NCBI RefSeq assembly: GCF_041929145.1
Contig: NZ_JBHFNU010000005.1
Location: forward strand, 20,868-84,867
DNA from: Aerosakkonema sp. BLCC-F183
GTDB lineage: Bacteria; Cyanobacteriota; Cyanobacteriia; Cyanobacteriales; Aerosakkonemataceae
Length of the DNA stretch: 64,000 nucleotides
Direction of reading: 5' to 3'
Shown here piece after piece: positions 3,586 through 59,730 of this stretch; the stretch's first letter is position 1; each line of letters begins with the position of its first letter. The notes under the pieces are model-generated. The model had not been told where the DNA came from and did not search any database. It was given only the letters and a program-made list of their open reading frames with translations. Made by a program: the position numbers and the translations under genes.

Positions 3586-4761
3586 CTAGAACATATCGGC
3601 AGGATCGGCTGATTGTAATTTGCTTGTAGCGATCGCACCGGAAATCGCACACATAATAATAGTTAAAGACAAAACCATAATTGCGCGAAACAAAGTCATG
3701 TAAATCGGTAAATTTGTGGCATTGCGAGCTAAATTATAAAGTCCCAAAGGTACGATCAGTCCCGGTATGAAACCCAGAACTGCCAAAATGATAGCTTCTT
3801 CAAAAATCACGCCTAGCAAGTAGGAATTGTGGTAACCCATTGCCTTGAAAGTAGCGTATTCCTTGATATGGGCATTTACATCAGTGGAAAGAACTTGATA
3901 AACGATAATTACACCGACGATAAAACCCATCGCTACACCCATACCGAAAATAAAGCCGATCGGACTTCCGGTTTTCCAATAATTTTCTTCAAATTTGATG
4001 AATTCTTCGATGGTTAGCACTTTCACATCTTCGGGTAGGTAAGCTTTTAATGCCGCCACCACCTGAGTTGAATCTGCACCAGGTTCGAGATAAATTAAAC
4101 CCAGACTGATACTACCAGCTTGTCTTTTCGGGAATAATCTTAAAAAATTCTCATCGCTAGAAACCAGAGTGCCATCAGCACCAAAAGAAGCCCCCAATTT
4201 GAATAAGCCACCGATCGTAATAGTTCTCCTATCTACTTCCGTGGTAACTTCCCTACCCGCTTCCAGTTGGGCAAAAACCTCTTTGTAATCGCCTCTTGCA
4301 CCTCTGTCAAACAGGAAAGTATCCGGTAGCCGAATTTTATCGAGTTGGGCGTTAATTTCGGGAATGTTTAAAGCAGGCTGTTCGGGATTAAAACCAATCA
4401 CTTGTACAGTCGTCTTTTTGCGCGTCTGAGGATTCTTCCAAGACACGGTGTTGATATACATGGCTTCGGCAGATTTCACTCCCGGAACATCGGAAGCTTG
4501 GTAGAGTCGCCGCCGCGACAAGGTAGATAAACTCTGAGAGTTCCGCGCTTGGGGACTCATCAGAATAATATCTGCCTGTATAGCGCGGTTGAGGCGCGTG
4601 TTACTGTCGTACAGCGCATTTTGAAATCCCAATTGCATAAACATCAGGACATCGGCAAAGGCAATTCCCGATAAAGCCACCAAGAGGCGGCTTCTGTGAC
4701 GGCTGAGTTGCAACCATCCCAGAGGTGTACGTCGCCGCAGTTCTTGAATAAGTGCAATCAT
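3586..4761 (-). CDS. devC: DevC-like ABC transporter permease (FtsX/MacB-type)
   Basis: 391 aa with an N-terminal TM, a large periplasmic domain and C-terminal FtsX-like TM helices; start overlaps the devB stop by 4 nt. Confidence 0.8.
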   Translation of the reverse strand: MIALIQELRRRTPLGWLQLSRHRSRLLVALSGIAFADVLMFMQLGFQNALYDSNTRLNRAIQADIILMSPQARNSQSLSTLSRRRLYQASDVPGVKSAEAMYINTVSWKNPQTRKKTTVQVIGFNPEQPALNIPEINAQLDKIRLPDTFLFDRGARGDYKEVFAQLEAGREVTTEVDRRTITIGGLFKLGASFGADGTLVSSDENFLRLFPKRQAGSISLGLIYLEPGADSTQVVAALKAYLPEDVKVLTIEEFIKFEENYWKTGSPIGFIFGMGVAMGFIVGVIIVYQVLSTDVNAHIKEYATFKAMGYHNSYLLGVIFEEAIILAVLGFIPGLIVPLGLYNLARNATNLPIYMTLFRAIMVLSLTIIMCAISGAIATSKLQSADPADMF

Positions 4762-6287: not shown

Positions 6288-6436
6288 GGAAGTCAAAAGT
6301 CAAAAGTCAAAATATTAATTCCCCCGCGACCCCGCGACCCCACGACCCCGCTTCCCCACTCTCCCTCTTCTTTTTGACTTTTGAATGCATGACTTTTGAC
6401 TTTTTCTAACCCCTAACCCCTAACCCCTAACCCCTA
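6288..6436. repeat. Composite STRR-like repeat element, copy A: (AGTCAAA)n – AATATTAATTC – C-rich heptamers – inverted GTCAAAAG arm – (TAACCCC)4
   Basis: Read directly; it shares the GTCAAAAGTCAAAAG, AATATTAATTC and CCCCCACT-type modules with the copies at 14090, 24284 and 27671. Confidence 0.8.
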
Positions 6437-38044: not shown

Positions 38045-38812
38045 ATGGAAAACATTGCTATCTCTGACTTATCGAACCAAAAATCATTAGAAACCACATT
38101 TTCAGAACTAACTGAAAGATGGCGCAAGGAAACGCAGATGATGTCCTCAATTACCAAAAAATCAAAACATCCTGCTTACCAAGAAATTATCAGCATGGGA
38201 ACACCAGTTTTACCCCTAATTCTACGCGAACTGAAGCGCCAGCCAGATCATTGGTTTTGGGCGCTAGTTGCTATCAGCGGAGAAAACCCTGTAAGTTCAG
38301 AATCCAACTTCGATCGCGCTGTTGAAACTTGGTTGGAATGGGGAAAAAATCGCGGATTAATTTAGATGGAGTCAATTCAATTAGAACTTTATTTTCCGAA
38401 TTTAAGAAACACCGGATATAGGATAGAAAGCCAAAAAACACCCCGATATAATTGTATTGCTTGGGCTGCTGGTGTAGACGATCGCCCTTGGTGGCCGATC
38501 GATTTACCGCCTTATTATTGGCCAGAAGAACCAAGAGTTGAATCCTTAGCCGCTTTCATTAGTGTTTTTCAAAGTTTAGGATATCAAGTTTGCGACAGTA
38601 GCGATCGCGAAATCGGTTTTGAGAAAGTAGCAATTTATATAGATGAAGATGAAATCCCAACACATATTGCAAGGCAACTTCCTTCTGGTGAATGGACAAG
38701 TAAATGTGGTGATTTGGAAGACATCATTCACACCTTAGAAGGGCTAGAGGGATCTTATCCAGCTTATGGAAGAGTAGCTTGTGTGATGAAAAGACCAATA
38801 TCGGGAAGCTAG
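38045..38812 (+). CDS. Hypothetical protein encoded as two same-frame ORFs (38045..38365 and 38366..38812) separated only by a TAG codon
   Basis: The TAG at 38363-38365 is immediately followed by an in-frame ATG; the second part has a Cys/His-containing core (YNCIAWAAG … IIHTLEG). Either one gene with an in-frame amber stop or a tightly coupled pair. Confidence 0.35.
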
Positions 38813-39064
38813 CATTTATCCGAATATATGGAAATTAATTAAGCTAGGGGGAAAACGCGATCGCACTTTCTCCACTCCCTCTCTATTCTGCACCAAAACT
38901 TTTAGCCATTCAGTCATCGATGGTTCAGTCATCATAAATTCTCCAAATCAGTTTTTAGCCTACTTGCATTTATTTTAACTTCGCCGCGCTACTATACAAC
39001 TATAGTTATCCGTCGTTTCTAAAGTCGCGTTGCGGTGTAAGTAATTCAAGCTGTTATTCTAGTT

Positions 39065-42000
39065 TTAAAATTGCATAAAGGAGGTAGATTCAATTACACC
39101 TTCAGCTTGATGAACGATCGATCGCAATTTATCTACCATCTCTGACTCAACATCTTGCCACAACCCGCGCTGATGCGCTTCTAACAATCTTTCTGCCATA
39201 TCTCGCAACACCCAAGGATTTTTTTCTTGGATAAATGCCTGCACGGATGGCTCAAATAAATACGCCTCTGCCACTCCTCTATACATAAAATCTTCCACAC
39301 AGTTAGCTGTAGCATCGTAGGCAAATAAATAATCCACCGTCGCCGACATTTCAAACGCACCTTTGTAACCGTGGCGCATCACTCCCGCTATCCACTTGGG
39401 ATTGACTACGCGAGAACGATATACTCGCGCAATTTCCGATCGCAACTGTCTGACTTTGGGATTTTCAGGCAGAGAATTATCGCCAAAATAAGTTTGGGGA
39501 TTTTTTCCAGTTAAGGCGCGAACTGCTGCTGTTAACCCACCCTGAAATTGATAGTAATCATCCGAATCTAGCAAATCGTGTTCGCGGTTGTCTTGATTGT
39601 GCAGAACTATTTGCATCTGCCGCAGACGCTGTTCAAATGCTTCTGGTGCTGCAATACCGAATTTGGGATTTTGGATTTGGGTTTTGGGATTTTCCTGTGC
39701 CTTTGTTTCCCTATGACTGGATGTGTAAGCATAGCTACTCCAATTAATATAAGCACGCGCTAAATCTTGCTCATCTTTCCAGTTTTGCGCTTCAATTAAA
39801 CCTTGCAGACCGGCACCGTAGGCACCGGGTTTAGAACCAAAAATGCGATAGTGCGATCGCATTTCTGCCTGTTCTTCATTTAACCCCGCAGCCAGCCAGA
39901 ATTGCCTTTCTTGCTTCACTTGCGCCGCCAAAGGATTGTCTTCCGGCGGTTCGTTCAACGCGGCTACCGCCGCTATTGCGCGATCGAATAAATCGATTAA
40001 ATTCGGAAAAGCATCGCGGAAAAAACCCGAAATTCGCAGCGTTACATCCACACGCGGACGCCCCAAAACCGCAACTGGCAATATCTCAAAATCTACTACC
40101 CGCCGCGATGGGCCATCCCACACAGGTCGCACCCCCAGCAATGCCAACGCCTGCGCCACATCATCGCCGCCAGTCCGCATCGTTGCAGTTCCCCATACGG
40201 ATAATCCCAGTGTTTTAGGATACTCGCCATTTGACTGAGTATATTGCTCAATCAAAGTTTCAGCCGCTTTTCTGCCAATATTCCAGGCTGTTTCCGTCGG
40301 CAGGCTGCGAATATCAACCGAGTAAAAATTGCGACCAGTAGGCAGTACTTCCGGGCGTCCCCGCGTAGGTGCACCAGATGGGCCGCTGGGTACAAATCGA
40401 CCGTCCAAACCGCGCAACAATTGGGTGATTTCTTGTTGAGTTTGTTGCAGTGCGGGTAGGAGGTAAGTGCTTATCCAATCTAACTCGCGCTTGATTAATT
40501 TTCCGCTTTCAATTATCAGTTGTTCTTTATCGGTTGCTATTAGCTGTTCTACTAAATTAGCTGCGTATTCTTCCAATAACTCGATCGCATCCCCAGCAGT
40601 TTGATATTTTGTGGTGTCTTGATATTTTGTGGTGTCTTGATATTTTGTGGGCTCTTGATATTTTGTGGGCTCTTGATATTTTGTGGGCTCTTGATATTTT
40701 GTAGGGTCTTGATATTTTGTAGGGTCTTGATATTTTGTAGGGTCTTGATATTTTGTGGGCTCTTGATATTTTGTGGGCTCTTGATATCTTGTGGGCTCTT
40801 GATATTTTGTAGGCTCTTGATATTTTGTAGGCTCTTGATATCTTGTAGGCTCTTGATATCTTGTGGGGTGGGCATCTTGCCCGCCTTCAATTAATGATGG
40901 GGAATTTAATGACAGGCGAGACGCCTGTCCCACAAGAGGTAGGGATGGATCTGCTGTTAAAGGGTCAAAATCCCAACCCCAATCTTTAGCGATCGCACGA
41001 GTTAAACCAAGGCGATTAGTACCGGGATGACGGGCTATAGCTACAATCAAATCCCTTAGCTGTCGCCCCTGCGGACATTGCCCGAAAATATGTAGTCCGT
41101 CCCGAATTTGTGCTTCTTTCAATTCGCAAAGATAACCATCAATTAAAGACAGAAGCGAACTGTCGAAATTTTCAGGAAAAAATTCTTTGTTTTGATTTTT
41201 TACTTTTAAATTTTGACTTACTTCTAAATCTTGCTGTAAATTTTCTTGCGATACCAACTGTGCGATGCGATCGGCTATCATCGGTAAACGCTTTGGGTCT
41301 AAACTTTGCGCCTCATAATATTCATCGATCGAACTTTCTAATTGTTGCAAAGGGCCATAAAGTTCCGCCCGCGTCATCGGTGGCGTCAAGTGGTCGATAA
41401 TCACAGCTTGAGCGCGACGTTTAGCTTGAGAACCTTCACCCGGATCGTTGACAATAAACGGATAAAAATGTGGCATCGCACCTAATGCCACTTCCGGGTA
41501 ACAATTACTCGATAAAGCGACACTTTTACCGGGTAGCCATTCCAAATTGCCGTGCTTCCCTACATGAACGATCGCATCTGCTTGAAAATGTTGTCGCACC
41601 CAATAATAAAAAGCTAAATAAGCATGAGTGGGTTCTAAATCCGGGGCATGATAATTCAAACTGGGATCGATATCGTAACCTCGACTCGGTTGAATCCCCA
41701 CAAAAACATTACCTAACTGAATTCCCGAAATTGGAAATAGGAAATTACCCCTTTCGTCCCCCCCGTTGACGGGGGGGATTGAGGGGGGGTTCCGAATTCC
41801 CCAGCGATCGCATATCCCTTGCTGTACATCTTTTGGTAAACTTACAAAATACTCGTTATATTCTTCTAGCGATAATTGCTGCCAAATCTGTCGTAATTCG
41901 CGCCCTTCCGGATCGTTAGTCACCCCAGCAGTCAAGCGTGCAATCAACTCATCGCCCGTTTCAGGTAAATTTTCCAAATAATAACCAGCCGATTGCAACG

Positions 42001-43231
42001 CCTTCAGAATCTCTACACAACTAGCTGGAGTATCCAATCCCACCCCATTAGCGAGACGCCCATCGCGATTGGGATAATTAGCTAAAATTAGAGCAATTTT
42101 GCGCTCGGAAACGGGAGTTTTACGCAGACGCACCCAGTTTAAAGCTAAATCCGCTACAAAACCAATCCGATCTAATTGCGGTTCGTATCCCACCACATCA
42201 GTTTCCAATTGAGGATGGCGAGATTGCACTGCTTTAAATGAAACTGCTCGACTGATAATTCGCCCATCTACTTCCGGTAGCGCCACATTCATCGCCATGT
42301 CTCGCGGCGAAAGTCCTTTGTATCCAGATTCCCACTGTTCGACAGTACCGCTGCTAAAAATTACTTGCAATACAGGCACATCTAAATTTTCAATAGGGGA
42401 TGGCATTGTCAATCCCAAATCTGAAATGGAAAAGCTAGTTGTATTTAGTAAAATATCTATTTGTTCTGCATCTTTGGGCTGGCAATATTGCAACAGTTCT
42501 GCTTGCACATCAGGTTCTCGCAAAGAAGAGACAAATATTGGCACTGGTTGTAATTTCCGAGCGGATAAAGCTTGACAAAGCGCATCGATTACAGTTGTAT
42601 TTCCAGCTAAATAATGAGCGCGGTAAAATAATATTCCAACTTTAGCTATTGACAATTCTGCTTGTTTCCCATTTCCCATTTCCCAGCGATAAAGTCCCAC
42701 ACGGGGAACTTCTGCTGGTGGCGGCGGATTGTAGGTTTGAGCTAAGCACACATCGGCAACAAATTTAAGCGCGTTCACAAAATTTTGCACGCCGCCTTCG
42801 GTGAAATAGCGCCACAGCTGGTTAACTACTGTGAGGGAGACGGTGGAGCGATCGAATAAATGGGGATCTGGGCGATCGTCTCCCGGCATCACAATCAGCG
42901 TTTTCTGGGATTTTTCCACCGTTTCCCGCACTACTTCCAATCCATAAGACCAGTAGGAACGTCCTCCTAGCAGCCTGACGATAATTACCTCTGCTTGTGC
43001 AAGCACTTGTTCTGCATAAGTATCAATACTTAACTGTTGTTGCAACTGCAACAGATTCACCACCCGCAGCGCTGGGAATCCCTCCGGTAGGAAGCCGACT
43101 GCGGCGGCAAAGGTTTGGATATCCGTATCCGCAGCAGTTAGAAAAACGATGGGAGCAGGCGTTTGCTCCACAAAAATGACTCCTTCTTCCTGAAAATTCC
43201 ACCCTCCGGGGGTAGCAGCTAAACGATGCAA
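39065..43231 (-). CDS. cobN: Cobaltochelatase CobN subunit with an in-frame (PTKYQE)n hexapeptide-repeat insertion
   Basis: N-terminus MHRLAATPGGWNF…VFLTAADTDIQTFAAAV parallels CobN (…ILFLSAADTEL…); overall 1388 aa with a CobN/Mg-chelatase architecture; starts with TTG. ~16 copies of the 18-nt unit at 40601-40872 encode PT(K/R)YQ(E/D). Confidence 0.8.
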   Translation of the reverse strand: MHRLAATPGGWNFQEEGVIFVEQTPAPIVFLTAADTDIQTFAAAVGFLPEGFPALRVVNLLQLQQQLSIDTYAEQVLAQAEVIIVRLLGGRSYWSYGLEVVRETVEKSQKTLIVMPGDDRPDPHLFDRSTVSLTVVNQLWRYFTEGGVQNFVNALKFVADVCLAQTYNPPPPAEVPRVGLYRWEMGNGKQAELSIAKVGILFYRAHYLAGNTTVIDALCQALSARKLQPVPIFVSSLREPDVQAELLQYCQPKDAEQIDILLNTTSFSISDLGLTMPSPIENLDVPVLQVIFSSGTVEQWESGYKGLSPRDMAMNVALPEVDGRIISRAVSFKAVQSRHPQLETDVVGYEPQLDRIGFVADLALNWVRLRKTPVSERKIALILANYPNRDGRLANGVGLDTPASCVEILKALQSAGYYLENLPETGDELIARLTAGVTNDPEGRELRQIWQQLSLEEYNEYFVSLPKDVQQGICDRWGIRNPPSIPPVNGGDERGNFLFPISGIQLGNVFVGIQPSRGYDIDPSLNYHAPDLEPTHAYLAFYYWVRQHFQADAIVHVGKHGNLEWLPGKSVALSSNCYPEVALGAMPHFYPFIVNDPGEGSQAKRRAQAVIIDHLTPPMTRAELYGPLQQLESSIDEYYEAQSLDPKRLPMIADRIAQLVSQENLQQDLEVSQNLKVKNQNKEFFPENFDSSLLSLIDGYLCELKEAQIRDGLHIFGQCPQGRQLRDLIVAIARHPGTNRLGLTRAIAKDWGWDFDPLTADPSLPLVGQASRLSLNSPSLIEGGQDAHPTRYQEPTRYQEPTKYQEPTKYQEPTRYQEPTKYQEPTKYQDPTKYQDPTKYQDPTKYQEPTKYQEPTKYQEPTKYQDTTKYQDTTKYQTAGDAIELLEEYAANLVEQLIATDKEQLIIESGKLIKRELDWISTYLLPALQQTQQEITQLLRGLDGRFVPSGPSGAPTRGRPEVLPTGRNFYSVDIRSLPTETAWNIGRKAAETLIEQYTQSNGEYPKTLGLSVWGTATMRTGGDDVAQALALLGVRPVWDGPSRRVVDFEILPVAVLGRPRVDVTLRISGFFRDAFPNLIDLFDRAIAAVAALNEPPEDNPLAAQVKQERQFWLAAGLNEEQAEMRSHYRIFGSKPGAYGAGLQGLIEAQNWKDEQDLARAYINWSSYAYTSSHRETKAQENPKTQIQNPKFGIAAPEAFEQRLRQMQIVLHNQDNREHDLLDSDDYYQFQGGLTAAVRALTGKNPQTYFGDNSLPENPKVRQLRSEIARVYRSRVVNPKWIAGVMRHGYKGAFEMSATVDYLFAYDATANCVEDFMYRGVAEAYLFEPSVQAFIQEKNPWVLRDMAERLLEAHQRGLWQDVESEMVDKLRSIVHQAEGVIESTSFMQF
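40601..40872. repeat. 18-nt tandem repeat (TTGATATTTTGTGGGCTC and variants, ~15 copies) within cobN
   Basis: Read directly; the copy number is a multiple of 3 and preserves the frame; variant units are clustered (GTGTCT, GGCTCT, GGGTCT types). Confidence 0.9.
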
Positions 43232-43967
43232 GATGGTATCCCTTTTTCTGTCTGCTTACTCGACGTTGCGCTCTCTTCAGCGCTTTTTCATCTTGCCTCA
43301 AAATGCGAGGGTTTTCAATTTTTTTCCCATCTGCATCAGTAGAGAAATGGTTCTAACCCATATCTAAGCCTAATATCTTACCAGTTAAATCATGATTTGC
43401 CTTACTTTCGCCATCAATGCAAAACTGTGCTTAATATCCATCAGAACGGCTAACTATTCTAACTCGCTGGATTTGACGGATCTCAGAGAAGTGCAAATCT
43501 CTATTTCCCTAAAGCTTGAAAATGCCTCCACCAAACTGGTCGGTAAATGTGATATTTCTTCTTGCTTGCGATCGCACCCATCCGCAGGTTTTATATTTAA
43601 CAGATGTCCTTCTTTGCAGCCGCTTGAATTTTGGATACCTTTTGGCCTGGGACTTGATTTTTCCAATTATCAAAGAATTTGTATATGCCTACCAGTTTTC
43701 TTTCAGCCATTGGTTAACGTGACATTGAGTTAAGTTTTTTACCCAAGCGAACTCAGGGTTTTCAGCTAAACCCGGTCGTATTTTATTGATATCCATACCG
43801 TTTATTCCTGGATCGTCCATCCTGTAACGCAAAGATTTATTACGAAAAAAAGGCCAGTCGGCAACATATCATCAATGATGCGATACTGGCTGAGAGTTTC
43901 TTGTAACTTAGCTTCATAAACTAGCATTTATGTAAAACAATTATTCAGGTATTGTAGCAATGTTTGT

Positions 43968-43998
43968 AAAAATATGGTACTCGATGTACCATATTTTT
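43968..43998. promoter_or_regulatory. Perfect 13-bp-arm palindrome AAAAATATGGTAC-TCGAT-GTACCATATTTTT upstream of the CikA-like kinase gene (LexA-box-like GTAC…GTAC core)
   Basis: Read directly, ~75 nt upstream of the 44071 start; the core TGGTAC-N5-GTACCA resembles the cyanobacterial LexA box (GTAC-N4-GTWC) but with 5-nt spacing. Confidence 0.4.
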
Positions 43999-44070
43999 AA
44001 CACCTTCGCTCCCAACCAAACTAACGGTATAATCGCGGTAAAAGGCAAATCTGATAAATAAATATCTAAA

Positions 44071-46545
44071 ATGGTCAGTTATCAAAATTCAATTTTAAAT
44101 CGATGTTTGCCCCTGACTACTTTTGAGCGGGTGCGAGAGTTATTGGGGCAGATGGCTCAAAGGTTTCAGGCAGATACCGGCGTCAATTTTTCCGCTTTGC
44201 GGAAAAGACAAGAACAAGATTTTACCTTATTTCTGACGGAAGATGTAGTATCCTCTGTAGAAGTACCCCAAGGAACGCTGCCAGAAAGGTTCGCGCTGTT
44301 AATTTCAAAGCGCTTTAGCGCCTGGTTGTTCGGAGACAGGGCATGGGAGAAAAGCGAGACGGAAAGCCCGAACGGAAAGGATAATCTGCCGACGACCAAT
44401 TGCCAAGTGTCAATCCCCAATGCCCAATTCCTTAGCGTGGGGTTAACTTTCGAGCCAACAGCGATCGTCGCCTTTCTCACCCAACTCAGTAATTTAGTAG
44501 AAAACAATCTCTTTGCCCGTCAAACTCTGCAAGCAGCAAGCAAAATCCCCCAGTCTAACGACCCGACGCTTCAAAGTGAATTTACTCTCTCGTTGCTAGA
44601 AATCTTTTCCCAGGATCGAGAGGAAAACAATGCAGCAGAAAAGGTCTATCCTTATGTTTCTGTGTGTCAACCCGTTCATAATACGCTCAGCCAACAGATC
44701 GAACAAGAGCGACTCCTGAATCAGGTGACAACGCAAATCCGCCAAAGTCTCGAATTACCGGTCATTCTCAATACTGCTGTTGAGCAGGTAAGAAATTTTT
44801 TGCAAGCCGATCGCCTGATCGTATATGAATTTCACTGCGACACAGTAGAGGAGCGGCATAACTCTAAAATAGCTTCTTCTTCAGGCGACTACCACGGCTT
44901 TGCAGTCAACCAGAATGCCGACTCAAACTTTCCAGACCCCCTCTATCCTCTGGCATCTTTGGATTCTTCCTCCTGTTACGGTCGCATTACCTACGAAGCT
45001 AAGGCAAACGATAGCATACCCTCAGTACTCTATTTGGCAGAGGAGGGATACTGCTTCATCAAAGTGCCTAAATGTCGCGAGAAATATCGCAAAGGTTTTG
45101 CCTTAGCCGTCGAAGATATCGAAACTGCCTACATTTTTTCTCCCTGCTTGTTGGACTTAATGCGAAATGTGCGGGTGCGAGCCAAGTTAGCTGTACCGAT
45201 CGTCATCCAAGAACAACTCTGGGGACTGCTCATTGTCCATCAATGCTTCCAACCCCGCCAATGGCAGGAAAATGAAAAAAACTTTCTCCGGCAAATTGCA
45301 GAACACTTAGCGATCGCCATTTACCAAGCTCAACTTTATGCCCAACTCCAACAGCAAAAACAAACTTTAGAACAACGGGTGATCGAGCGCACCCAAGAAC
45401 TCCACGATGCCATGCTAGCCGCACAATCAGCCAGTCGCACCAAAGGTGAGTTTCTCGCCACCATGAGCCACGAATTGCGAACACCTCTCACCTGCGTCAT
45501 CGGGCTCTCTGCGACTCTCTTGCGCTGGTCATTCGGTCAACTCAGTCAGAAACAGCGGCAATACCTGCAAACTATCCACGATAACGGAGAACACTTATTA
45601 GAGTTAATCAACGATATCCTCGAACTTTCTCAAATGGAAGCGGGTAAAACCGTTTTAAATATCAGCGATATTTCCTTATCTCTAGTCGCACAATATAGCT
45701 TACAAATTGTCAGAGAAAAAGCCCTCCAACGCGGCGTTGAACTGGCAATCAATTTACGTATATCTCCCAGTCAAGACCGATTTTTAGCTGACGGTAAACG
45801 AGTTAAACAAATTCTTTTTAATCTCCTAACTAATGGCATTAAATTTACTCCCTCTGGCGGACGAGTGACTCTGCGAGTTTGGTTGGAGGGCACTCAGGCT
45901 GTGTTTCAGGTAGAAGATACCGGGATCGGCATTTCTCAAGAGCAGCTACCTCTAATTTTTCAGAAATTTCAACAGTTGGATACCTCTTATCACCGCCAAT
46001 ACGAAGGCACTGGTTTGGGTTTGGCTTTAACAAAACAACTGGTAGAATTGCATAGGGGTCGGATCGAAGTCGATTCTAGGGTGGGAGAGGGATCGATTTT
46101 TACAGTTTGGTTGCCTCTACCGCCATCACCTCCTTCTCCCAACGATCCGCGCATACCGATAATGACCGACCTCCCCCAAGGGCGCATTGTGTTGATTGAA
46201 AATGATGAAGAAACAGCTAACCTCATCTGCGATATTCTCACTGCCGCCGGCTATCAAATTGTCTGGATTATTGAAGGCACAACCGCTATAAAACAAATTG
46301 AAATTTTGCAACCTTTCGCCGCACTCGTGGAAATTAATCTTTCCGGTCTAAATGGTTATGAAGTGATCCGTCAATTGCGTAATTCATCTGCAATATCAAA
46401 CCTAAAAATTTTGGCTATAACTGCTACGGAAATACCCGCAAATCAATTATACGGTTTGGGGGCAGAGCCAGATGATTATCTGAATAAACCCGTGCAGCCA
46501 CAAGAGTTATTGCACAAAGTTCAATTGCTAATGACTAATAATTAA
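44071..46545 (+). CDS. CikA-like GAF sensor histidine kinase with a C-terminal pseudo-receiver domain
   Basis: N-terminal ~200-aa domain of unknown type, GAF, H-box FLATMSHELRTPL, HATPase_c (DTGIGIS, GTGLGLALTKQLVELHRG). The C-terminal REC-like fold has Glu at the phospho-acceptor position (ALVEINLSGLNG) and ENDEE in place of the acidic-pocket DD. Confidence 0.55.
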   Translation: MVSYQNSILNRCLPLTTFERVRELLGQMAQRFQADTGVNFSALRKRQEQDFTLFLTEDVVSSVEVPQGTLPERFALLISKRFSAWLFGDRAWEKSETESPNGKDNLPTTNCQVSIPNAQFLSVGLTFEPTAIVAFLTQLSNLVENNLFARQTLQAASKIPQSNDPTLQSEFTLSLLEIFSQDREENNAAEKVYPYVSVCQPVHNTLSQQIEQERLLNQVTTQIRQSLELPVILNTAVEQVRNFLQADRLIVYEFHCDTVEERHNSKIASSSGDYHGFAVNQNADSNFPDPLYPLASLDSSSCYGRITYEAKANDSIPSVLYLAEEGYCFIKVPKCREKYRKGFALAVEDIETAYIFSPCLLDLMRNVRVRAKLAVPIVIQEQLWGLLIVHQCFQPRQWQENEKNFLRQIAEHLAIAIYQAQLYAQLQQQKQTLEQRVIERTQELHDAMLAAQSASRTKGEFLATMSHELRTPLTCVIGLSATLLRWSFGQLSQKQRQYLQTIHDNGEHLLELINDILELSQMEAGKTVLNISDISLSLVAQYSLQIVREKALQRGVELAINLRISPSQDRFLADGKRVKQILFNLLTNGIKFTPSGGRVTLRVWLEGTQAVFQVEDTGIGISQEQLPLIFQKFQQLDTSYHRQYEGTGLGLALTKQLVELHRGRIEVDSRVGEGSIFTVWLPLPPSPPSPNDPRIPIMTDLPQGRIVLIENDEETANLICDILTAAGYQIVWIIEGTTAIKQIEILQPFAALVEINLSGLNGYEVIRQLRNSSAISNLKILAITATEIPANQLYGLGAEPDDYLNKPVQPQELLHKVQLLMTNN

Positions 46546-46557
46546 TTGTTGGTTGTT

Positions 46558-47706
46558 CATTAGACATCTCCAACATATAAACTAAACTGCGAGCGAGTAG
46601 GATAAAATGGAGTTTTACCTTACCGAAATGAGCCAACTGAGAGAATATATAGAAAAGCACCCATCCGAAACCCAAAGGTTAGTGGGTGTCGATTATGAGC
46701 AGTTAATAGAGTTGAGCGGTCTTGCAGAAAGATTACACAAGCAGAAACAACTTGCAGCAGAACAGAGAAAAACGAGAATAATCAAGGCTGGAGGGGGAAG
46801 ACAGCCAAAGTTAAACTTGAGTGACCAAGTTCTACTAACCTTAGTATATCTGCATCACCTACCAACATTCCAGATGCTAGGAGTTCAGTTCGGAGTAAGT
46901 GAATCAGCAGCTAATTATATATTTCACTACTGGCTAGGAATATTAAGGGAACTGCTACCAGCCTCTTTAGTAGAACAAGTAAAAAAAAAGCCTCAGAATG
47001 GTCATGGATTGAAGAAATATTAAGCGACTTTGAGTTAATAGTGGATAGCTACGAGCAACCGCGTGAAAGGCCAGCAGAGTACCAAGAGCAAAAAAAGTAT
47101 TACTCAGGAAAGAAGAAAAAGCATACATTTAAAAACCAATTAATAGTAATGCCTTCTGGTCAAGAGATAGTGGATGTAGTAGTAGGGAAACCAGGCGCAA
47201 CCAGTGATATAAAAATATGGCGAGAACAACGGAGAGAATTCAGTAGTGGCCAGAAATTTCAAGGAGACAAAGCTTACGTAGGAGAACCAGCGATTGACAC
47301 CCCTCATAAGAAAACTAGAAGTAAAGGTATAACGCTTGAACAAAAACAAGATAATCAAAAAAAAGCCCGCACTAGAGTGGTGGTAGAGCACTTAATTAGA
47401 CTGGTGAAGACTTTTCGGATAGCGGCAGAAAGATTCCGGTTAAAATCCACAACTTATGAACCAGTAATTCTGACTGTATGTGGATTAATCAGATGGCGGA
47501 TAGGTGCAATAGTTCGCGCATAGCTAAAAAGCCTAAAATTTCTGACTAAATATGAAACAATCTTACCTCAAAAATCCCTTCTATTTTGACCGCAACACTG
47601 CCAAAGCCTTATGTAACCGTTGGTTTTTGACTGCCTGCCCTTTGGGGGGCAGGCAGTCAAAAACCAATATTATAAAGGCTTTGGCAGTTTTTGGAGATGT
47701 CTATTG
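46558..47706 (+). mobile_element. IS5-family (IS427-group-like) insertion sequence, ~1.15 kb, two-ORF transposase with an A9 frameshift site; imperfect 16-bp terminal IRs CA(T/A)TAGACATCTCCAA
   Basis: IRL at 46558-46573 and IRR at 47691-47706 (reverse complement, one mismatch). ORFA 46607..47023 ends just after a run of nine A at 46982-46990; the next frame continues …EWSWIEEILSDFELIVDSYEQP… into ORFB 47041..47523 (DDE_Tnp_4-like: KKHTFKNQLIV…GDKAY). A nested perfect hairpin lies at 47590-47690. Confidence 0.7.
46607..47523 (+). CDS. IS5/IS427-group transposase (orfA 46607..47023 plus orfB 47041..47523, joined by a frameshift at the A9 tract)
   Basis: OrfA has an HTH-like N-terminus; orfB has DDE_Tnp_4-like motifs; the protein sequence is continuous in the alternative frame across the A9 run. 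Confidence 0.65.
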
Positions 47707-47753: not shown

Positions 47754-47876
47754 ACAACTGACAACTAACAACTGACAACTGACAACTGACAACTAACAAC
47801 TGACAACTGACAACTGACAACTGACAACTGACAACTGACAACTGACAACTGACAACTGACAACTAACAACTGACAA
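47754..47876. repeat. STRR-like heptamer array (CAACTGA/CAACTAA)x17 abutting the nanE start codon
   Basis: Read directly; the array ends at …CAACTGACAA immediately before the ATG at 47877; it resembles cyanobacterial STRR3 (CAACAGT). Confidence 0.9.
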
Positions 47877-48563
47877 ATGACTGTTAATCAACAAAAAATA
47901 ACACAACTGCGCCATAGCTTGATTGTTTCCTGTCAGGCTCCCGCTGACTCGCCCCTACACGATCCTCTCGCGATCGCTGCAATGGCGCAAGCTGCTGTAC
48001 TCGGAGGCGCAGCCGCAGTAAGGATTGATACACCAAGTCATGTCAGCGCCGTGCGCCAGAAAGTAGAAGCACCGATTATCGGGCTTTGGAAACAGCAGAT
48101 ACGTGGATACGATGTATACATTACTCCTGAGTACCAACACGCGGAGGCGATCGCATCTGCCGGTGCAGATATCATCGCCATTGACGCTACCCCCAGAAAT
48201 CGACCGGGTAATGAAAGCTTGCATACCCTAATTGCACGCATTCACAAGGAATTGGGCAAGCCGGTGATGGCAGATGTAGATACCATTGAGGCAGCGATCG
48301 CCGCCGAAAAAGCCGGTGCCGATATTGTGGGTACAACGCTCTACGGCTACACCAACGACACAAAGCACCTCTCTCCCCCCGGCTTGGAACTCCTGGCCCA
48401 AATGGTAAAAAATTTGAACGTACCAGCCATTTGCGAAGGCGGCATTTCCTCACCCCAGATGGCTCAACAAGCCCTACAACTGGGAGCCTATGCAGTTGTG
48501 GTCGGCACTGATATCACCGGTATCGATTACAAGGTTTTAGCTTATCGCGCCGTTTTCCCTTGA
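47877..48563 (+). CDS. nanE: Putative N-acetylmannosamine-6-phosphate 2-epimerase
   Basis: LIVSCQA near the N-terminus, mid-protein IAIDAT, GTTLYGYT, and ICEGGI…VVVG match NanE conserved blocks; 228 aa. Confidence 0.7.
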   Translation: MTVNQQKITQLRHSLIVSCQAPADSPLHDPLAIAAMAQAAVLGGAAAVRIDTPSHVSAVRQKVEAPIIGLWKQQIRGYDVYITPEYQHAEAIASAGADIIAIDATPRNRPGNESLHTLIARIHKELGKPVMADVDTIEAAIAAEKAGADIVGTTLYGYTNDTKHLSPPGLELLAQMVKNLNVPAICEGGISSPQMAQQALQLGAYAVVVGTDITGIDYKVLAYRAVFP

Positions 48564-55978: not shown

Positions 55979-56686
55979 GTGAAAATATCTGTCACGCTCG
56001 AGCAGGCAATTTTAAATGATTGCTGGAATAAAATCGGTGTAGGCGGCGATCGATCGTGCAAACAACTCAAAACCTATATTCACTGCCGCAACTGCCCCGT
56101 TTATTCCGCTGCGGGGCGCGGCTTGCTGGAACGAGATGCACCAGAAGGCTACATTGATGAATGGACAGATTTATTTGCCCAAACTCAGCTTCCAGAAAGG
56201 TCATCTCAAAGCGAAAATACTAAAACTCAAGCGGTTATCATCTTTCGCTTGGGCGTAGAATGGCTAGCCCTGCCAGCTAACTTATTTAAAGAAGTTACGC
56301 CTCCCAGCGTCATCCACACCATACCGCACCGCACCAACAAAATATTACTGGGTATTGTGAACATTCGAGGCGAAATTCTTATGTGCATTTCCCTCAGCAA
56401 CCTCTTGGGTTTAGAAATCCCAGAAAAAAGCAAAAATTCTAAATCAAATACCGTTGTCCAAGAACGGATGGTAGTAGTTGAAAAAAATGAAGAACGTTGG
56501 GTTTTTAGCGTCGATGAAGTTTCCAGCATTCAACGCTTCCATCCCCATCAATTTCGCCCCGCACCAGCCGTCATCACCCAATCCAATGAATCTTATACCA
56601 AAGCGGTGATAAATTGGCAAAACAAAAAAGTTAGTTATTTGGATGATGAATTGCTGTTTTACAACATAAACAGGAGGATAACGTGA
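55979..56686 (+). CDS. CheW-like protein with an N-terminal Cys-rich (C-x12-C-x9-C-x2-C) extension
   Basis: CWNKIGVGGDRSCKQLKTYIHCRNCP followed by a CheW fold (…IFRLGVEWLALPANLFKEV…ILLGIVNIRGEIL…). Confidence 0.7.
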   Translation: MKISVTLEQAILNDCWNKIGVGGDRSCKQLKTYIHCRNCPVYSAAGRGLLERDAPEGYIDEWTDLFAQTQLPERSSQSENTKTQAVIIFRLGVEWLALPANLFKEVTPPSVIHTIPHRTNKILLGIVNIRGEILMCISLSNLLGLEIPEKSKNSKSNTVVQERMVVVEKNEERWVFSVDEVSSIQRFHPHQFRPAPAVITQSNESYTKAVINWQNKKVSYLDDELLFYNINRRIT

Positions 56687-59600
56687 CAGATATAAGCGGT
56701 TACTCCATGCTGGATTTGTTCCGGATGGAAGTGGAAGCCCAGGCAGCAATATTAAACGAAAATTTGTTGGCGCTAGAAAACCAACCTTCCTCTGCAAAAG
56801 AACTGGAAGCCTTAATGCGGGCTGCTCATTCGATTAAAGGAGCAGCTCGCATTGTCGAAATTGATGCCGCCGTTAACCTGGCTCACATCATGGAAGACTG
56901 CTTCGTCGCCGCACAAAGCCAACGCATTACGTTGACTCCGGATGACATCGACGTACTGCTGCGCGGCGTCGATATGCTCGCAAATATTAGCCGCGTAGAA
57001 AACGGAGGTTTAGAGGGTTTCTTAGAGGAAAATGAATCGGAAATAGCAGCGACAAGGGCAGAAATTGCTGCCATTTTGACGCCGGGAGCCGAAAACAAGG
57101 GGAGAACGGGAGAACGGGAAAGTCAAAAGTCAAAAGTCAAAAGTCAAAATTCTTCCTCTTCCCTCTCCCCTCCCCCTTCTCCCTCTCCTTCTTCCTCTAC
57201 TCCTTCTCCGTCTTCCCCCACTCCCCCGCCCCCTGTCTCCCCCACACTCCCTGAGCCTCCCGAAGCACCAGCTGCTCCCGAAATGGAAGAAGTTCCCAGT
57301 ATTGGCAATAGCTCGATGCTGGAATTATTTCGTTTGGAAGTAGACGCACAGACAAAGATATTAAATGATGGTTTGCTAGCCCTAGAAAGCCAACCGGATT
57401 CTTTGAGAGAATTGGAAGCGCTGATGCGAGCTGCCCATTCGATTAAAGGAGCTGCTCGCATTGTGGCGATCGATGCGGCGGTTAACCTGGCTCACGTCAT
57501 GGAAGACTGCTTTGTGGAGGCGCAGAAACAAACGATTACCCTGGCAGCAGATAGTATTGATATTCTGTTGCGAGGCGTCGATCTGATCCAAAATATTAGC
57601 CAACTGGAGCCAGCAGAATTGGGCGTTTGGCTAAAAGAAAATCGCCAAGAAATTGAAACCACAAGACAAGAAATTAGCGCTATCCTGACACCTGGATCTG
57701 CACCAGTTCCGCGCAAAAAAGCAGAGCCGGCAAATGGACAATCGGATGCGGTCAAACCAAAAGCACAAGAGCAAACCGCCTCCATCGATGCTAAAACTGA
57801 AACCCAGATAGACAGTTCCGCACAGCCAGAGCAACAAACGCAATCAGCTGCCTTAGTTCCTCAAAGTGCCTCTGCAAAGGAAACTAGCGTCACCAAACAA
57901 ATAGTTAAGAACCCCCCTACACCTATTGGGCCTGCCAAAGAGTCAAAAGCAGCGCCAATACCCACCAAAGATACAAACAAAGATCGGGTGGTGATGGTAA
58001 GCGCAGAAAACCTCAATCGTATCATGGGGTTAGCGGGTGAAACTCTGATCGAGGCGAGTTGGTTACAGCCTTATGCCGATTCTTTGATGATGCTTAAGAA
58101 ACGGCAACAGGAATTATCTAAAGTTCTCGAAAATTTACAGGAAGCTTGCGGAAAAAGCCACGTCGATGGACAAACCGAAAATATTCTGAAAGTGGCTCGC
58201 GATAAAGAGCGGGAATGTCGGGAAATTCTGCTGGAGCGCATCCACACCCTAGAATTATATGCCGGTCGCACGGCTAACTTGAGCGATCGCCTCTACAGGG
58301 AAGTAATTGCCTCCCATATGCGTCCCTTCGCGGACGGCGTGCAAAGCTTTCCTCGGATGATGCGGGATCTCGCCAGAAAACTGGGCAAACAAGTTAACTT
58401 TGAGATCGTGGGCAAAGCTACACCAGTCGATCGAGATATTCTCAAAAAATTGGAAGCTCCCCTCACCCACATTTTACGGAATGCCCTCGATCACGGTCTG
58501 GAAATGCCTGACGATCGCATCGCAGTTGGCAAACCAACAGAAGGAACCATCAAACTGGAAGCCACCCACCGCAGCGGGATGTTAGCCGTCACCATTTCTG
58601 ATGATGGCAAGGGAATGAACCTAGAGCAATTACGCGAAAAAATCGTCAGAAAGAAGCTGGCTAGCCCAGAGATGGCAGCTAAGTTTACCGAAAGCGAGTT
58701 ATTAGAATTTATCTTTTTGCCAGGGTTTTCCACCGCCGCTCAAGTCACGGAAATTTCCGGACGCGGTGTTGGTTTGGATATCGCCAAGAGCATGGCCCAC
58801 GAAGTCGGCGGCACCGTGCGGGCAAGTTCGGTACCCGGAAAAGGGATGAGTTTTCACTTCCAATTGCCCCTCACTCTGTCCGTTATTCGCACTTTATTAG
58901 TAGAAATATCCGGCGAACCTTACGCTTTTCCCCTAGCGCGGATCGAACAGTTGGTCATGCTGGATAAATCAGAAATAGCCGTGGCGGAAAATCGCCAATA
59001 TTTCACCCTCAATGGTGAAAATATCGGACTGATAGCTGCCTATCAAGTTTTGGAATTGCCGCCATCTTCATTCAAGTCAGATGCGCTACCAGTTGTGGTA
59101 ATTGGCGATCAATCAAACCGCTTTGGTATGGTGGTAGATAAATTCTTGGGCGAACGCGACTTAGTAGTCCGACCTTTAGATCCCCGCCTGGGCAAAGTCC
59201 AAGATATCGGTGCTGCTGCCCTGATGGGAGATGGTTCTCCGATTTTAATTGTGGATGTGATAGATTTAGTACGCTCCATTGATAACCTGCTCAACACTAA
59301 AGACAAAGAATTGCAGCAGGTAAGCGATGATGATGGGGATGGCAAATTACTAGAAACCAAGAAGCGTATCCTAGTAGTTGATGACTCGATTACCGTGCGG
59401 GAAATGGAACGAAAGCTCTTGGAAAACAAAGGTTATATGGTTGAAGTTGCAGTCGATGGTATGGATGGTTGGAATGCAGTTCGCACCAATCACTATGACT
59501 TGGTTGTGAGCGACATTGATATGCCGCGTATGAATGGAATTGAATTTGTCAGCCAGATCAAAAATCATCCGAAGCTGAATTCAATTCCCGTAATTATTGT

Positions 59601-59730
59601 TTCTTACAGAGACAAAGAAGAACATCGAATTCAAGGACTGGAAGCTGGGGCAGATTATTATTTAACCAAGAGTAGTTTCCAGGATGATAGCTTCTTCAAA
59701 GCCGTCATAGATTTGATTGGCGAACCTTAA
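56683..59730 (+). CDS. CheA-like hybrid histidine kinase: Hpt – low-complexity linker – Hpt – dimerization/HATPase_c – CheW – REC (WspE/PixL-like)
   Basis: Two ~75%-identical Hpt domains (MLDLFRMEVEAQAAILNENLLALENQP…HSIKGAARIV / MLELFRLEVDAQTKILNDGLLALESQP…HSIKGAARIV); HATPase (LTHILRNALDHGLE…DDGKGMN); CheW-like domain; C-terminal receiver (ILVVDDSITVREM…VVSDIDMPRMNG). Confidence 0.85.
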   Translation: MTDISGYSMLDLFRMEVEAQAAILNENLLALENQPSSAKELEALMRAAHSIKGAARIVEIDAAVNLAHIMEDCFVAAQSQRITLTPDDIDVLLRGVDMLANISRVENGGLEGFLEENESEIAATRAEIAAILTPGAENKGRTGERESQKSKVKSQNSSSSLSPPPSPSPSSSTPSPSSPTPPPPVSPTLPEPPEAPAAPEMEEVPSIGNSSMLELFRLEVDAQTKILNDGLLALESQPDSLRELEALMRAAHSIKGAARIVAIDAAVNLAHVMEDCFVEAQKQTITLAADSIDILLRGVDLIQNISQLEPAELGVWLKENRQEIETTRQEISAILTPGSAPVPRKKAEPANGQSDAVKPKAQEQTASIDAKTETQIDSSAQPEQQTQSAALVPQSASAKETSVTKQIVKNPPTPIGPAKESKAAPIPTKDTNKDRVVMVSAENLNRIMGLAGETLIEASWLQPYADSLMMLKKRQQELSKVLENLQEACGKSHVDGQTENILKVARDKERECREILLERIHTLELYAGRTANLSDRLYREVIASHMRPFADGVQSFPRMMRDLARKLGKQVNFEIVGKATPVDRDILKKLEAPLTHILRNALDHGLEMPDDRIAVGKPTEGTIKLEATHRSGMLAVTISDDGKGMNLEQLREKIVRKKLASPEMAAKFTESELLEFIFLPGFSTAAQVTEISGRGVGLDIAKSMAHEVGGTVRASSVPGKGMSFHFQLPLTLSVIRTLLVEISGEPYAFPLARIEQLVMLDKSEIAVAENRQYFTLNGENIGLIAAYQVLELPPSSFKSDALPVVVIGDQSNRFGMVVDKFLGERDLVVRPLDPRLGKVQDIGAAALMGDGSPILIVDVIDLVRSIDNLLNTKDKELQQVSDDDGDGKLLETKKRILVVDDSITVREMERKLLENKGYMVEVAVDGMDGWNAVRTNHYDLVVSDIDMPRMNGIEFVSQIKNHPKLNSIPVIIVSYRDKEEHRIQGLEAGADYYLTKSSFQDDSFFKAVIDLIGEP
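57121..57260. repeat. Partial composite STRR-like element ((AGTCAAA)x4 + CT-rich tract) embedded in-frame in cheA, encoding the Ser/Pro linker between the two Hpt domains
   Basis: AGTCAAAAGTCAAAAGTCAAAAGTCAAAATTCTTCCTCTTCCC…CCCCCACTCCCCCGCCCCC matches the arms of the intergenic composite elements (shares AATTCTTCC and CCCCCACT); translated as ESQKSKVKSQNSSSSLSPPPSPSPSSSTPSPSSPTPPPP. Confidence 0.7.

Follow-up and report, generated by a model that had tools for sequence, protein, structure and literature searches.

How does a conserved metabolic enzyme come to carry some ninety residues of regular hexapeptide repeat? The question is raised by a 64,000-nucleotide stretch of the Aerosakkonema sp. 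BLCC-F183 genome (contig NZ_JBHFNU010000005.1, positions 20,868 to 84,867), hereafter the window, in which the gene for the cobaltochelatase subunit CobN, a vitamin B12 enzyme, contains a tandem array of 18-nucleotide (nt) units. The explanation favored here, with a probability of roughly three in four, is that a small palindromic repeat seeded the array in a permissive loop of a working CobN: the array would be a coding minisatellite, or in-frame variable number tandem repeat (VNTR), produced by tolerated slippage expansion. The argument draws on the structure of the array, the loop that holds it, a closely related genome with a shorter array, and a palindromic element that adjoins the array and supplies half of its first unit. 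Coordinates of these features are collected in Table 1.

An in-frame hexapeptide array in cobN

The host gene is identified by several profile matches. Its 1388-residue product is matched by Pfam PF02514 (CobN-Mg_chel) over residues 140-1363 (E=0). With NCBIfam TIGR02257 (cobaltochelatase CobN) it scores 1661 bits (cutoff 822); TIGR02025 (BchH) reaches 685 bits, below its cutoff of 829. The best match in the PDB is also a CobN, chain 9uk9_A, at 1160 bits. Judged by these scores, the protein is CobN rather than BchH/ChlH, and it is predicted to insert cobalt into hydrogenobyrinic acid a,c-diamide together with AAA+ partner subunits (CobS/CobT or ChlI/ChlD). An Rfam scan of the whole window returned no family at the gathering score, and no cobalamin riboswitch adjoins cobN (43232..44070).

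Tandem Repeats Finder places the array at 40601..40867, with a period of 18, 14.8 copies, 95% matches and no indels, and the score of 422 is the highest in the window. A search with the pattern TTGATATTTTGTGGGCTC, allowing up to 3 mismatches, yields 15 contiguous matches at 40601..40870 and none elsewhere in the 64 kb; 0.11 matches are expected by chance, and none of 100 shuffles reaches 15. Because the units begin at offset 2364 of the coding sequence, which is divisible by 3, they lie in frame, reading CC[C/T] or ACC, then ACA, A[A/G]A, TAT, CAA and GA[G/C], and encoding PT[K/R]YQ[E/D]. The residue types P, T, K/R, Y, Q and E/D each occur once per unit, so all six are equally represented. 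Eight distinct unit variants follow one another in ordered blocks, with runs of two to three identical neighboring units, and the Thr codon is ACA in all 15. Substitutions between units are conservative or synonymous (E/D, K/R, Pro CCC/CCT), except for P to T in the last two. With head-to-tail units, a unit length that is a multiple of three and an open reading frame (ORF) preserved over 15 x 18 nt, the array has the properties of an in-frame coding VNTR.

A first-pass annotation, made from the letters of this DNA, had described an in-frame 18-nt repeat of about 15 copies inside cobN, with unit variants in subfamily blocks. The profile matches confirm the host gene, the two repeat searches and the reading offset confirm the repeat, and the blocks are present in the array. 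The annotation had also described a Tyr/Gln/Pro-rich tract of about 95 residues; such a tract is there, but it measures 90 residues and is equally rich in Thr, Lys and Glu.

Several other identities were considered and set aside. ORFs that cross the array in other frames, at 40601..40894 on the plus strand and 40552..40890 on the minus strand, are by-products of a stop-free repeat. Assignment to the STRR heptanucleotide repeats fails on the period, which is 18 and not 7 nt. Cementoin (PF10511) scores 36.4 bits over the whole protein (cutoff 27), yet none of the individual stretches passes, and the host is CobN. This match and the weak ones of the tract to Bacillus EntB/EntC wall-binding models are judged coincidences of periodic low complexity. 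The Cementoin-like stretch covers CobN residues 792-818, at about 40778..40858 of the window, where the trappin hexapeptide GQDPVK is matched by YQEPTK.

A permissive loop of the enzyme

The insertion site is flanked by the conserved DFDPLTAD on one side and the helix (T/A)GDA(I/V)E(L/V)LE on the other. In most cyanobacterial CobNs the loop between them holds 5-11 residues, as in GEKYR or HSSFVNGKDCR, and over 45 cyanobacterial CobNs its length ranges from 0 to 99 residues, the insert in the window being the longest. Since 9uk9_A aligns on both sides of the site (query 1-770 with chain 1-762, query 875-1360 with chain 773-1236), the palindromic element and the array together replace about 10 residues. 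Unrelated inserts that look repeat-derived occur in the same loop of other CobNs, among them NPKSKIQN heptamer-type peptides and a duplicated NSFPGSAWERDPRGSASLTPPPF. Judged by the aligned proteins, the loop is shown to be a permissive hot spot for insertions and deletions in cyanobacterial CobN; about eight other such hot spots lie along the protein in the same 45 sequences. The duplicated segment, found in CobN P0038, is 23 residues long, stands in tandem in the same loop (window residues 768-878) and may derive from a different dispersed repeat.

An AlphaFold2 model of residues 189-1388 renders residues 769-868 entirely as coil, with a predicted local distance difference test score (pLDDT) of 27-39 against 75-87 in the flanks. 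The model was built from a 45-sequence alignment and is poor overall (pLDDT 56.9, predicted template modeling score 0.46), and it serves only for this local contrast between tract and flanks. On that contrast the segment is probably disordered.

Copy number in a close relative

The best of 7821 CobN relatives is the CobN of Aerosakkonema funiforme (P0001), with 88% identity over 100% of the query. Its locus (L001, from the draft assembly GCA_014696265.1) is syntenic with the window and about 95% identical over 24 kb, the cobN DNA being 95.6% identical. The tract there reads HPTRYQD-STKYQD-PTKYQT, that is, three units at the same site and in the same register, and the alignment of the two genes shows a gap of exactly 216 nt, or 12 x 18, at the array. 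The first unit and the last partial unit correspond between the two arrays. None of the other relatives listed has the tract. Copy number at the orthologous site is 15 in the window and 3 in A. funiforme, both counts coming from assemblies and the tract being seen in these two genomes only. The Thr codon is ACC in two of the three A. funiforme units and ACA in all those of the window, so the units are more alike within than between genomes. This uniformity fits what lineage-specific amplification would be expected to leave.

The gene that carries the tract shows the marks of a working one. Over the cobN core of the two genomes, the Nei-Gojobori method gives a nonsynonymous distance (dN) of 0.012 and a synonymous distance (dS) of 0.122, for a dN/dS of 0.098, and outside the indel regions the proteins are 97.4% identical. 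A dN/dS of about 0.10 implies that the tract-bearing gene is still under purifying selection, and hence that the insertion is tolerated in a working enzyme.

These figures bear on the possibility of a contingency locus, which the first-pass annotation had also named; in its classical form, a simple-sequence repeat would turn cobN on and off or diversify a surface antigen. A tandem repeat within a coding region whose copy number differs between two close relatives does resemble such a locus. The unit, however, is 18 nt or six codons and the array lies within the gene, so slippage proceeds without a frame shift and cannot switch cobN off. The host is a cytoplasmic chelatase subunit rather than a surface, host-interaction or restriction-modification protein, and the low dN/dS also speaks against this kind of locus. 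A contingency function is scarcely credible here, and the annotation's suggestion is not upheld.

The two genomes differ in further ways near this site. A. funiforme cobN has additional in-frame insertions of 21 nt (PNPQSPM) and 129 nt (…ANPKSQIPNPKSD) that are absent from the window's gene. Small repeats within the window's cobN comprise ATTTGGG x 4.6 at 39661..39692, which encodes NPKTQIQNPK, and TTTCCCA x 3 at 42665..42685; the heptamer patches encode peptides of the NPK(T/S)QIQNPK type. Downstream of cobN, a segment has been replaced between the genomes: the window has 36511..39047, with ORFs at 36601..37593 and 38045..38365 (neither with a Pfam match) and at 38366..38812 (DUF7689), and A. 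funiforme has L001 14103..15392, with a DUF433/DUF5615 pair and a 118-residue ORF.

Distribution of the tract

Searches for the tract in other organisms were negative within their reach. A query of (PTKYQE)n with its flanks against a database of 5.8 billion proteins returned only two weak partial CobNs, with poor recall, as the A. funiforme CobN itself was missed. An exhaustive HMMER search with the tract alone against 1.84 billion cluster representatives found 223 proteins at E <= 0.001, with no (PTKYQE)n among the best 150; the proteins inspected among these 150 of 223 carry other hexapeptide or low-complexity repeats (EPTRD, PEKYQA, PTxY and others). The two-unit pattern TTGATAYYTTGTNNNNNCTTGATAYYTTGT had no match in a genome collection, a weak negative given that the pattern also misses A. 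funiforme with its ACC codons. In a metagenome collection, the junction of element and array had no match, and a looser two-unit pattern had four, all unrelated chance matches. Because no other (PTKYQE)n appeared in these protein, genome and metagenome searches, the results point to a tract that is probably young and lineage-restricted.

Such a distribution is relevant to the idea that the tract is a selected, functional disordered linker whose length tunes CobN, whether in docking of the AAA+ partner, solubility or assembly. The frame open over 270 nt, the mostly conservative or synonymous substitutions (P to T in the last two units apart), the purifying selection on cobN and the retention of the tract in two lineages can all be read in favor of this idea. 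Yet a stop-free 18-mer repeat stays open automatically, as the two other frames open across the array illustrate, and most orthologues work with 5-11 residues at the site. A five-fold difference in length between genomes that are about 95% identical sits poorly with a constrained length, and no homologous tract was found elsewhere in the protein searches. A selected linker is therefore considered unlikely.

A palindromic element supplies half of the first unit

Directly 5' of the array on the coding strand lies a palindromic element, which the first-pass annotation overlooked and which is the source of the first half of the unit. The element is an inverted repeat whose 32-nt arms are 72% complementary and each contain an inner hairpin, GACAGGCG-TCT-CGCCTGTC in one and GGGCA-AGA-TGCCC in the other. 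Folding it as single-stranded DNA gives -20 kcal/mol (z = -5.4). The element and unit 1 of the array have the element's last 9 nt in common. That first unit is CCCACAAGA-TATCAAGAG, and its first half is the terminal inverted repeat of the element.

The 23-mer of the right arm, GGGCA(A/G)GATGCCC(A/G)CCCCACAAG, occurs exactly or nearly so in at least 120 stretches of filamentous cyanobacteria, including Nostoc, Microcoleus, Tychonema, Egbenema, Microseira, Floridaenema and other genera. Single genomes hold several copies, Egbenema at least 8 loci, and most copies are intergenic. They are often paired with a TTGTGGAACAGGCATCTTGCCTGT module that resembles the left arm, and in some cases form tandem arrays. 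A rough count that considers open frames only places 12 of 140 copies in stretches of 250 or more codons with no stop. A literature search with a 13-mer returned only an irrelevant match.

At the site itself, the element is also present in A. funiforme (L001 12300..12390) and is absent from Argonema and most other CobNs, which constitutes a presence/absence polymorphism at an orthologous position. Related palindromes of the GGGAGCAAGATGCTCCCACTA type occur in the same CobN loop of two other genera, and the loop of a third CobN holds a minimal hairpin, TTGTAGGACAGGGGTGTCCTACAAGATATCAA, that encodes a single PTRYQ. By its dispersed copies, hairpin architecture and presence/absence pattern, the element is classed among the small dispersed palindromic repeats, an assignment made on sequence features.

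In other cyanobacteria the 23-mer and a TTGTGG(A/C)ACAGGCATCTTGCCTGT partner form tandem arrays with a period of about 56-109 nt. Such arrays are found at L007 2735-2925, L114 4949-5204 and L027 (minus-strand offsets 4545-4732), and the one in L007 falls within a 608-codon open frame on the opposite strand.

Between the window and A. funiforme, the element's arms agree at 63 of 63 positions, against 5 differences among the 26 nt of its spacer (Fisher p = 0.0016, for a partition chosen post hoc), which hints that the hairpin arms may be under constraint or gene conversion. The same figures have a place in the proposal that the array acts at the DNA or RNA level, with sigma-70-like sites driving RNA antisense to the 5' two-thirds of cobN. 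On the plus strand, over 40601..40862, every two neighboring units together spell TTGATA-16 nt-TATTTT with TG upstream, making 14 phased putative sites; 14 of the 22 promoter-like matches in 39000..43400 fall in the array, against 7.1 +/- 2.0 matches in shuffles. These are consensus matches only, at 9 of 12 positions, and result directly from TAT CAA codons read backwards; in A. funiforme, moreover, the ACC codons change the second hexamer to TATTTG and lose the required final T. Antisense promoters in the array are very improbable. A broader proposal would treat element and array as a copy-number-scaled intragenic regulatory module for cobN, a dial rather than a switch, working through antisense RNA or a pause or stability hairpin, or else as a new disordered segment that is arising from a mobile hairpin repeat within an enzyme under purifying selection; its chances appear slim.

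Table 1. Position of cobN, its 18-nt array and the adjoining palindromic element in the window
Feature	Window position	Strand	Details
cobN coding sequence	39065..43231	minus	1388 aa, TTG start, start position as in A. funiforme orthologue
15 x 18-nt units, codon register	40598..40867	minus	aa 789-878; plus-strand register 40601..40870
79-nt palindromic, small-dispersed-repeat-like element, in frame	40859..40937	minus	aa 765-791, PLVGQASRLSLNSPSLIEGGQDAHPTR
Right-arm module GGGCAAGATGCCCACCCCACAAG	40860..40882	minus	23-mer, dispersed
Left-arm module CTTGTGGGACAGGCGTCTCGCCTGTC	40911..40936	minus	perfect inner hairpin GACAGGCG-TCT-CGCCTGTC

Independent reads and the size of the array

Tandem arrays are error-prone in assembly, and an artefact might be suspected in the copy number or in some of the units. 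Run SRR30638120 yields two Logan short-read contigs that show 100% identity with the window, over lengths of 4668 and 6376 nt. One (L128) corresponds to window 35963..40630 and the other (L127) to 40758..47133; both stop inside the array, reproducing its distal 30 nt and proximal 113 nt in the same variant order and leaving 127 nt, or about seven units, unbridged in the middle. A gap of this kind can be taken as a sign of misassembly, but a contig would also be expected to break inside the array if the repeat is genuine and exceeds the k-mer of the assembler. The full identity and matching variant order at both ends, the ordered succession of eight variants with the frame kept, and the tract at the same site in A. 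funiforme all argue against an artefact, which is distinctly unlikely. The tract is real, and its edges are independently reproduced; the count of 15 rests on the window's own assembly.

Proposed origin of the insertion

Together these observations are consistent with a simple course of events. The element would have inserted in frame at the loop in the common ancestor of the window organism and A. funiforme. The element's terminal CCCACAAGA and the 9 bases that follow it (TATCAAGAN), 18 nt in all, would then have been duplicated, and replication slippage or unequal recombination may have altered the copy number to 15 here and 3 in A. funiforme. The adjacent hairpin possibly favored slippage or unequal exchange, and the runs of two to three identical neighboring units fit a stepwise slippage process. 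Because the unit is six codons without a stop, each change in copy number would merely lengthen or shorten a P/T/K/Y/Q/E-rich segment that the enzyme tolerates. The functional consequence is most likely none or slight, the insertion being a passenger. The genome's richness in other short tandem repeats offers supporting context.

Several points weigh against this account. At up to 5 mismatches, the element has no further copies in either genome segment, with one in the 64-kb window and one in 24 kb of A. funiforme, and its mobility in this lineage is putative. With the tract in two genomes only, expansion here and contraction in A. funiforme are both possible. Both copy numbers come from assemblies; the SRR30638120 contigs break in the array, and the draft assembly of A. 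funiforme may have collapsed its own. The neutrality of the insertion is presumed, and the placement of the loop at the surface is inferred from its variable length and a weak model rather than from coordinates.

Of the three readings that the first-pass annotation had offered, a recent slippage expansion tolerated in a loop agrees best with the evidence. Its hypervariable surface loop holds in the sense of an indel hot spot, as the spread of 0-99 residues over 45 CobNs indicates. The annotation had also considered a constant tract length in orthologues, and this is not what is seen, the sole tract-bearing orthologue having 3 units against 15.

Comparison with known repeat systems

Bacterial in-frame coding VNTRs, which together with the in-frame Rickettsia palindromic elements and the cyanobacterial small dispersed repeats come nearest to the present case, are usually described in surface or secreted proteins. 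The array resembles them in its head-to-tail units, a unit length that is a multiple of three, the difference in copy number between relatives and the uniformity within the array; it differs in its host, a cytoplasmic tetrapyrrole chelatase, and in having an identifiable seed, namely a palindromic element's end. The Cementoin or trappin transglutaminase-substrate repeats (PF10511) share a periodic hexapeptide, x-Q-[D/E]-P-[V/T]-K, but their host proteins are secreted, mammalian and carry a WAP domain, and similar scores are reached by many unrelated hexapeptide repeats. The STRR heptanucleotide repeats, which Mazel et al. reportedly described in heterocystous and filamentous cyanobacteria in 1990, share the genomic background, with several 7-nt arrays in the window and heptamer patches in cobN; the unit here, however, is 18 nt rather than 7 and unrelated in sequence.

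Other parallels are found among palindromic elements. Rickettsia palindromic elements occupy in-frame positions within protein-coding genes (Ogata et al. 2000, cited in PMC3184786). The likeness lies in a small palindromic selfish repeat placed in frame in a conserved gene, which stays intact with the added peptide at a tolerated position. The Rickettsia elements belong to another phylum and an unrelated sequence family and are single insertions of about 100-150 bp, whereas here the end of the element has been amplified to a 15-unit array. The small dispersed repeats of filamentous cyanobacteria (Elhai et al. 2008 Genome Res 18:1484, as cited in PMC3116915), together with REP/REPIN-like palindromes, share the short hairpin module, represented here by GGGCAAGATGCCCACCCCACAAG, its many copies, often nested or arrayed, and a mostly intergenic location. 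In this lineage, in contrast, one copy occurs in each of 64 and 24 kb, and the element is likened to small dispersed repeats as a class and not to a named family. Neither a target-site duplication nor an associated transposase, for which no aimed search was made, was identified. In Porphyromonas gingivalis, a minisatellite is located inside a transposable element of the miniature inverted-repeat type (MITE; PMC4596501), and the likeness is that a tandem minisatellite is physically tied to a small inverted-repeat element. There the minisatellite lies within the element, whereas here the array extends from the element's edge inside a coding sequence. A palindromic-element terminus amplified to a 90-residue hexapeptide array in a chelatase is a new instance, not a new kind.

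Other features of the window

Elsewhere, the window encodes a full-length Major Vault Protein homologue of 918 residues (30671..33427, minus strand) with four Vault domains and Vault_2/3/4 and MVP_shoulder domains, and a syntenic copy is present in A. funiforme (L001 17779-20439). A heptanucleotide array, ACAACTG x 18.3, occupies 47754..47881 (Tandem Repeats Finder score 228) and ends at the start of an ORF at 47877..48563. Other 7- and 8-nt arrays lie at 6406, 24362, 27721, 27780 and 57119, the last inside a CheA-like ORF (56683..59730).

Significance

The finding leaves the understanding of CobN and of contingency loci unchanged. In practical terms, short-read assemblies are interrupted at the array, as seen in both Logan contigs, and it could serve as a strain-typing VNTR for the Aerosakkonema lineage. 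Its wider value is that of a clean, datable case of a conserved enzyme that gains tens of residues through small palindromic repeats and slippage and is not destroyed by them. At this one locus one can see the seed (the end of the element), the permissive site (a loop that holds 5-11 residues in most relatives) and two copy-number states, 3 and 15.

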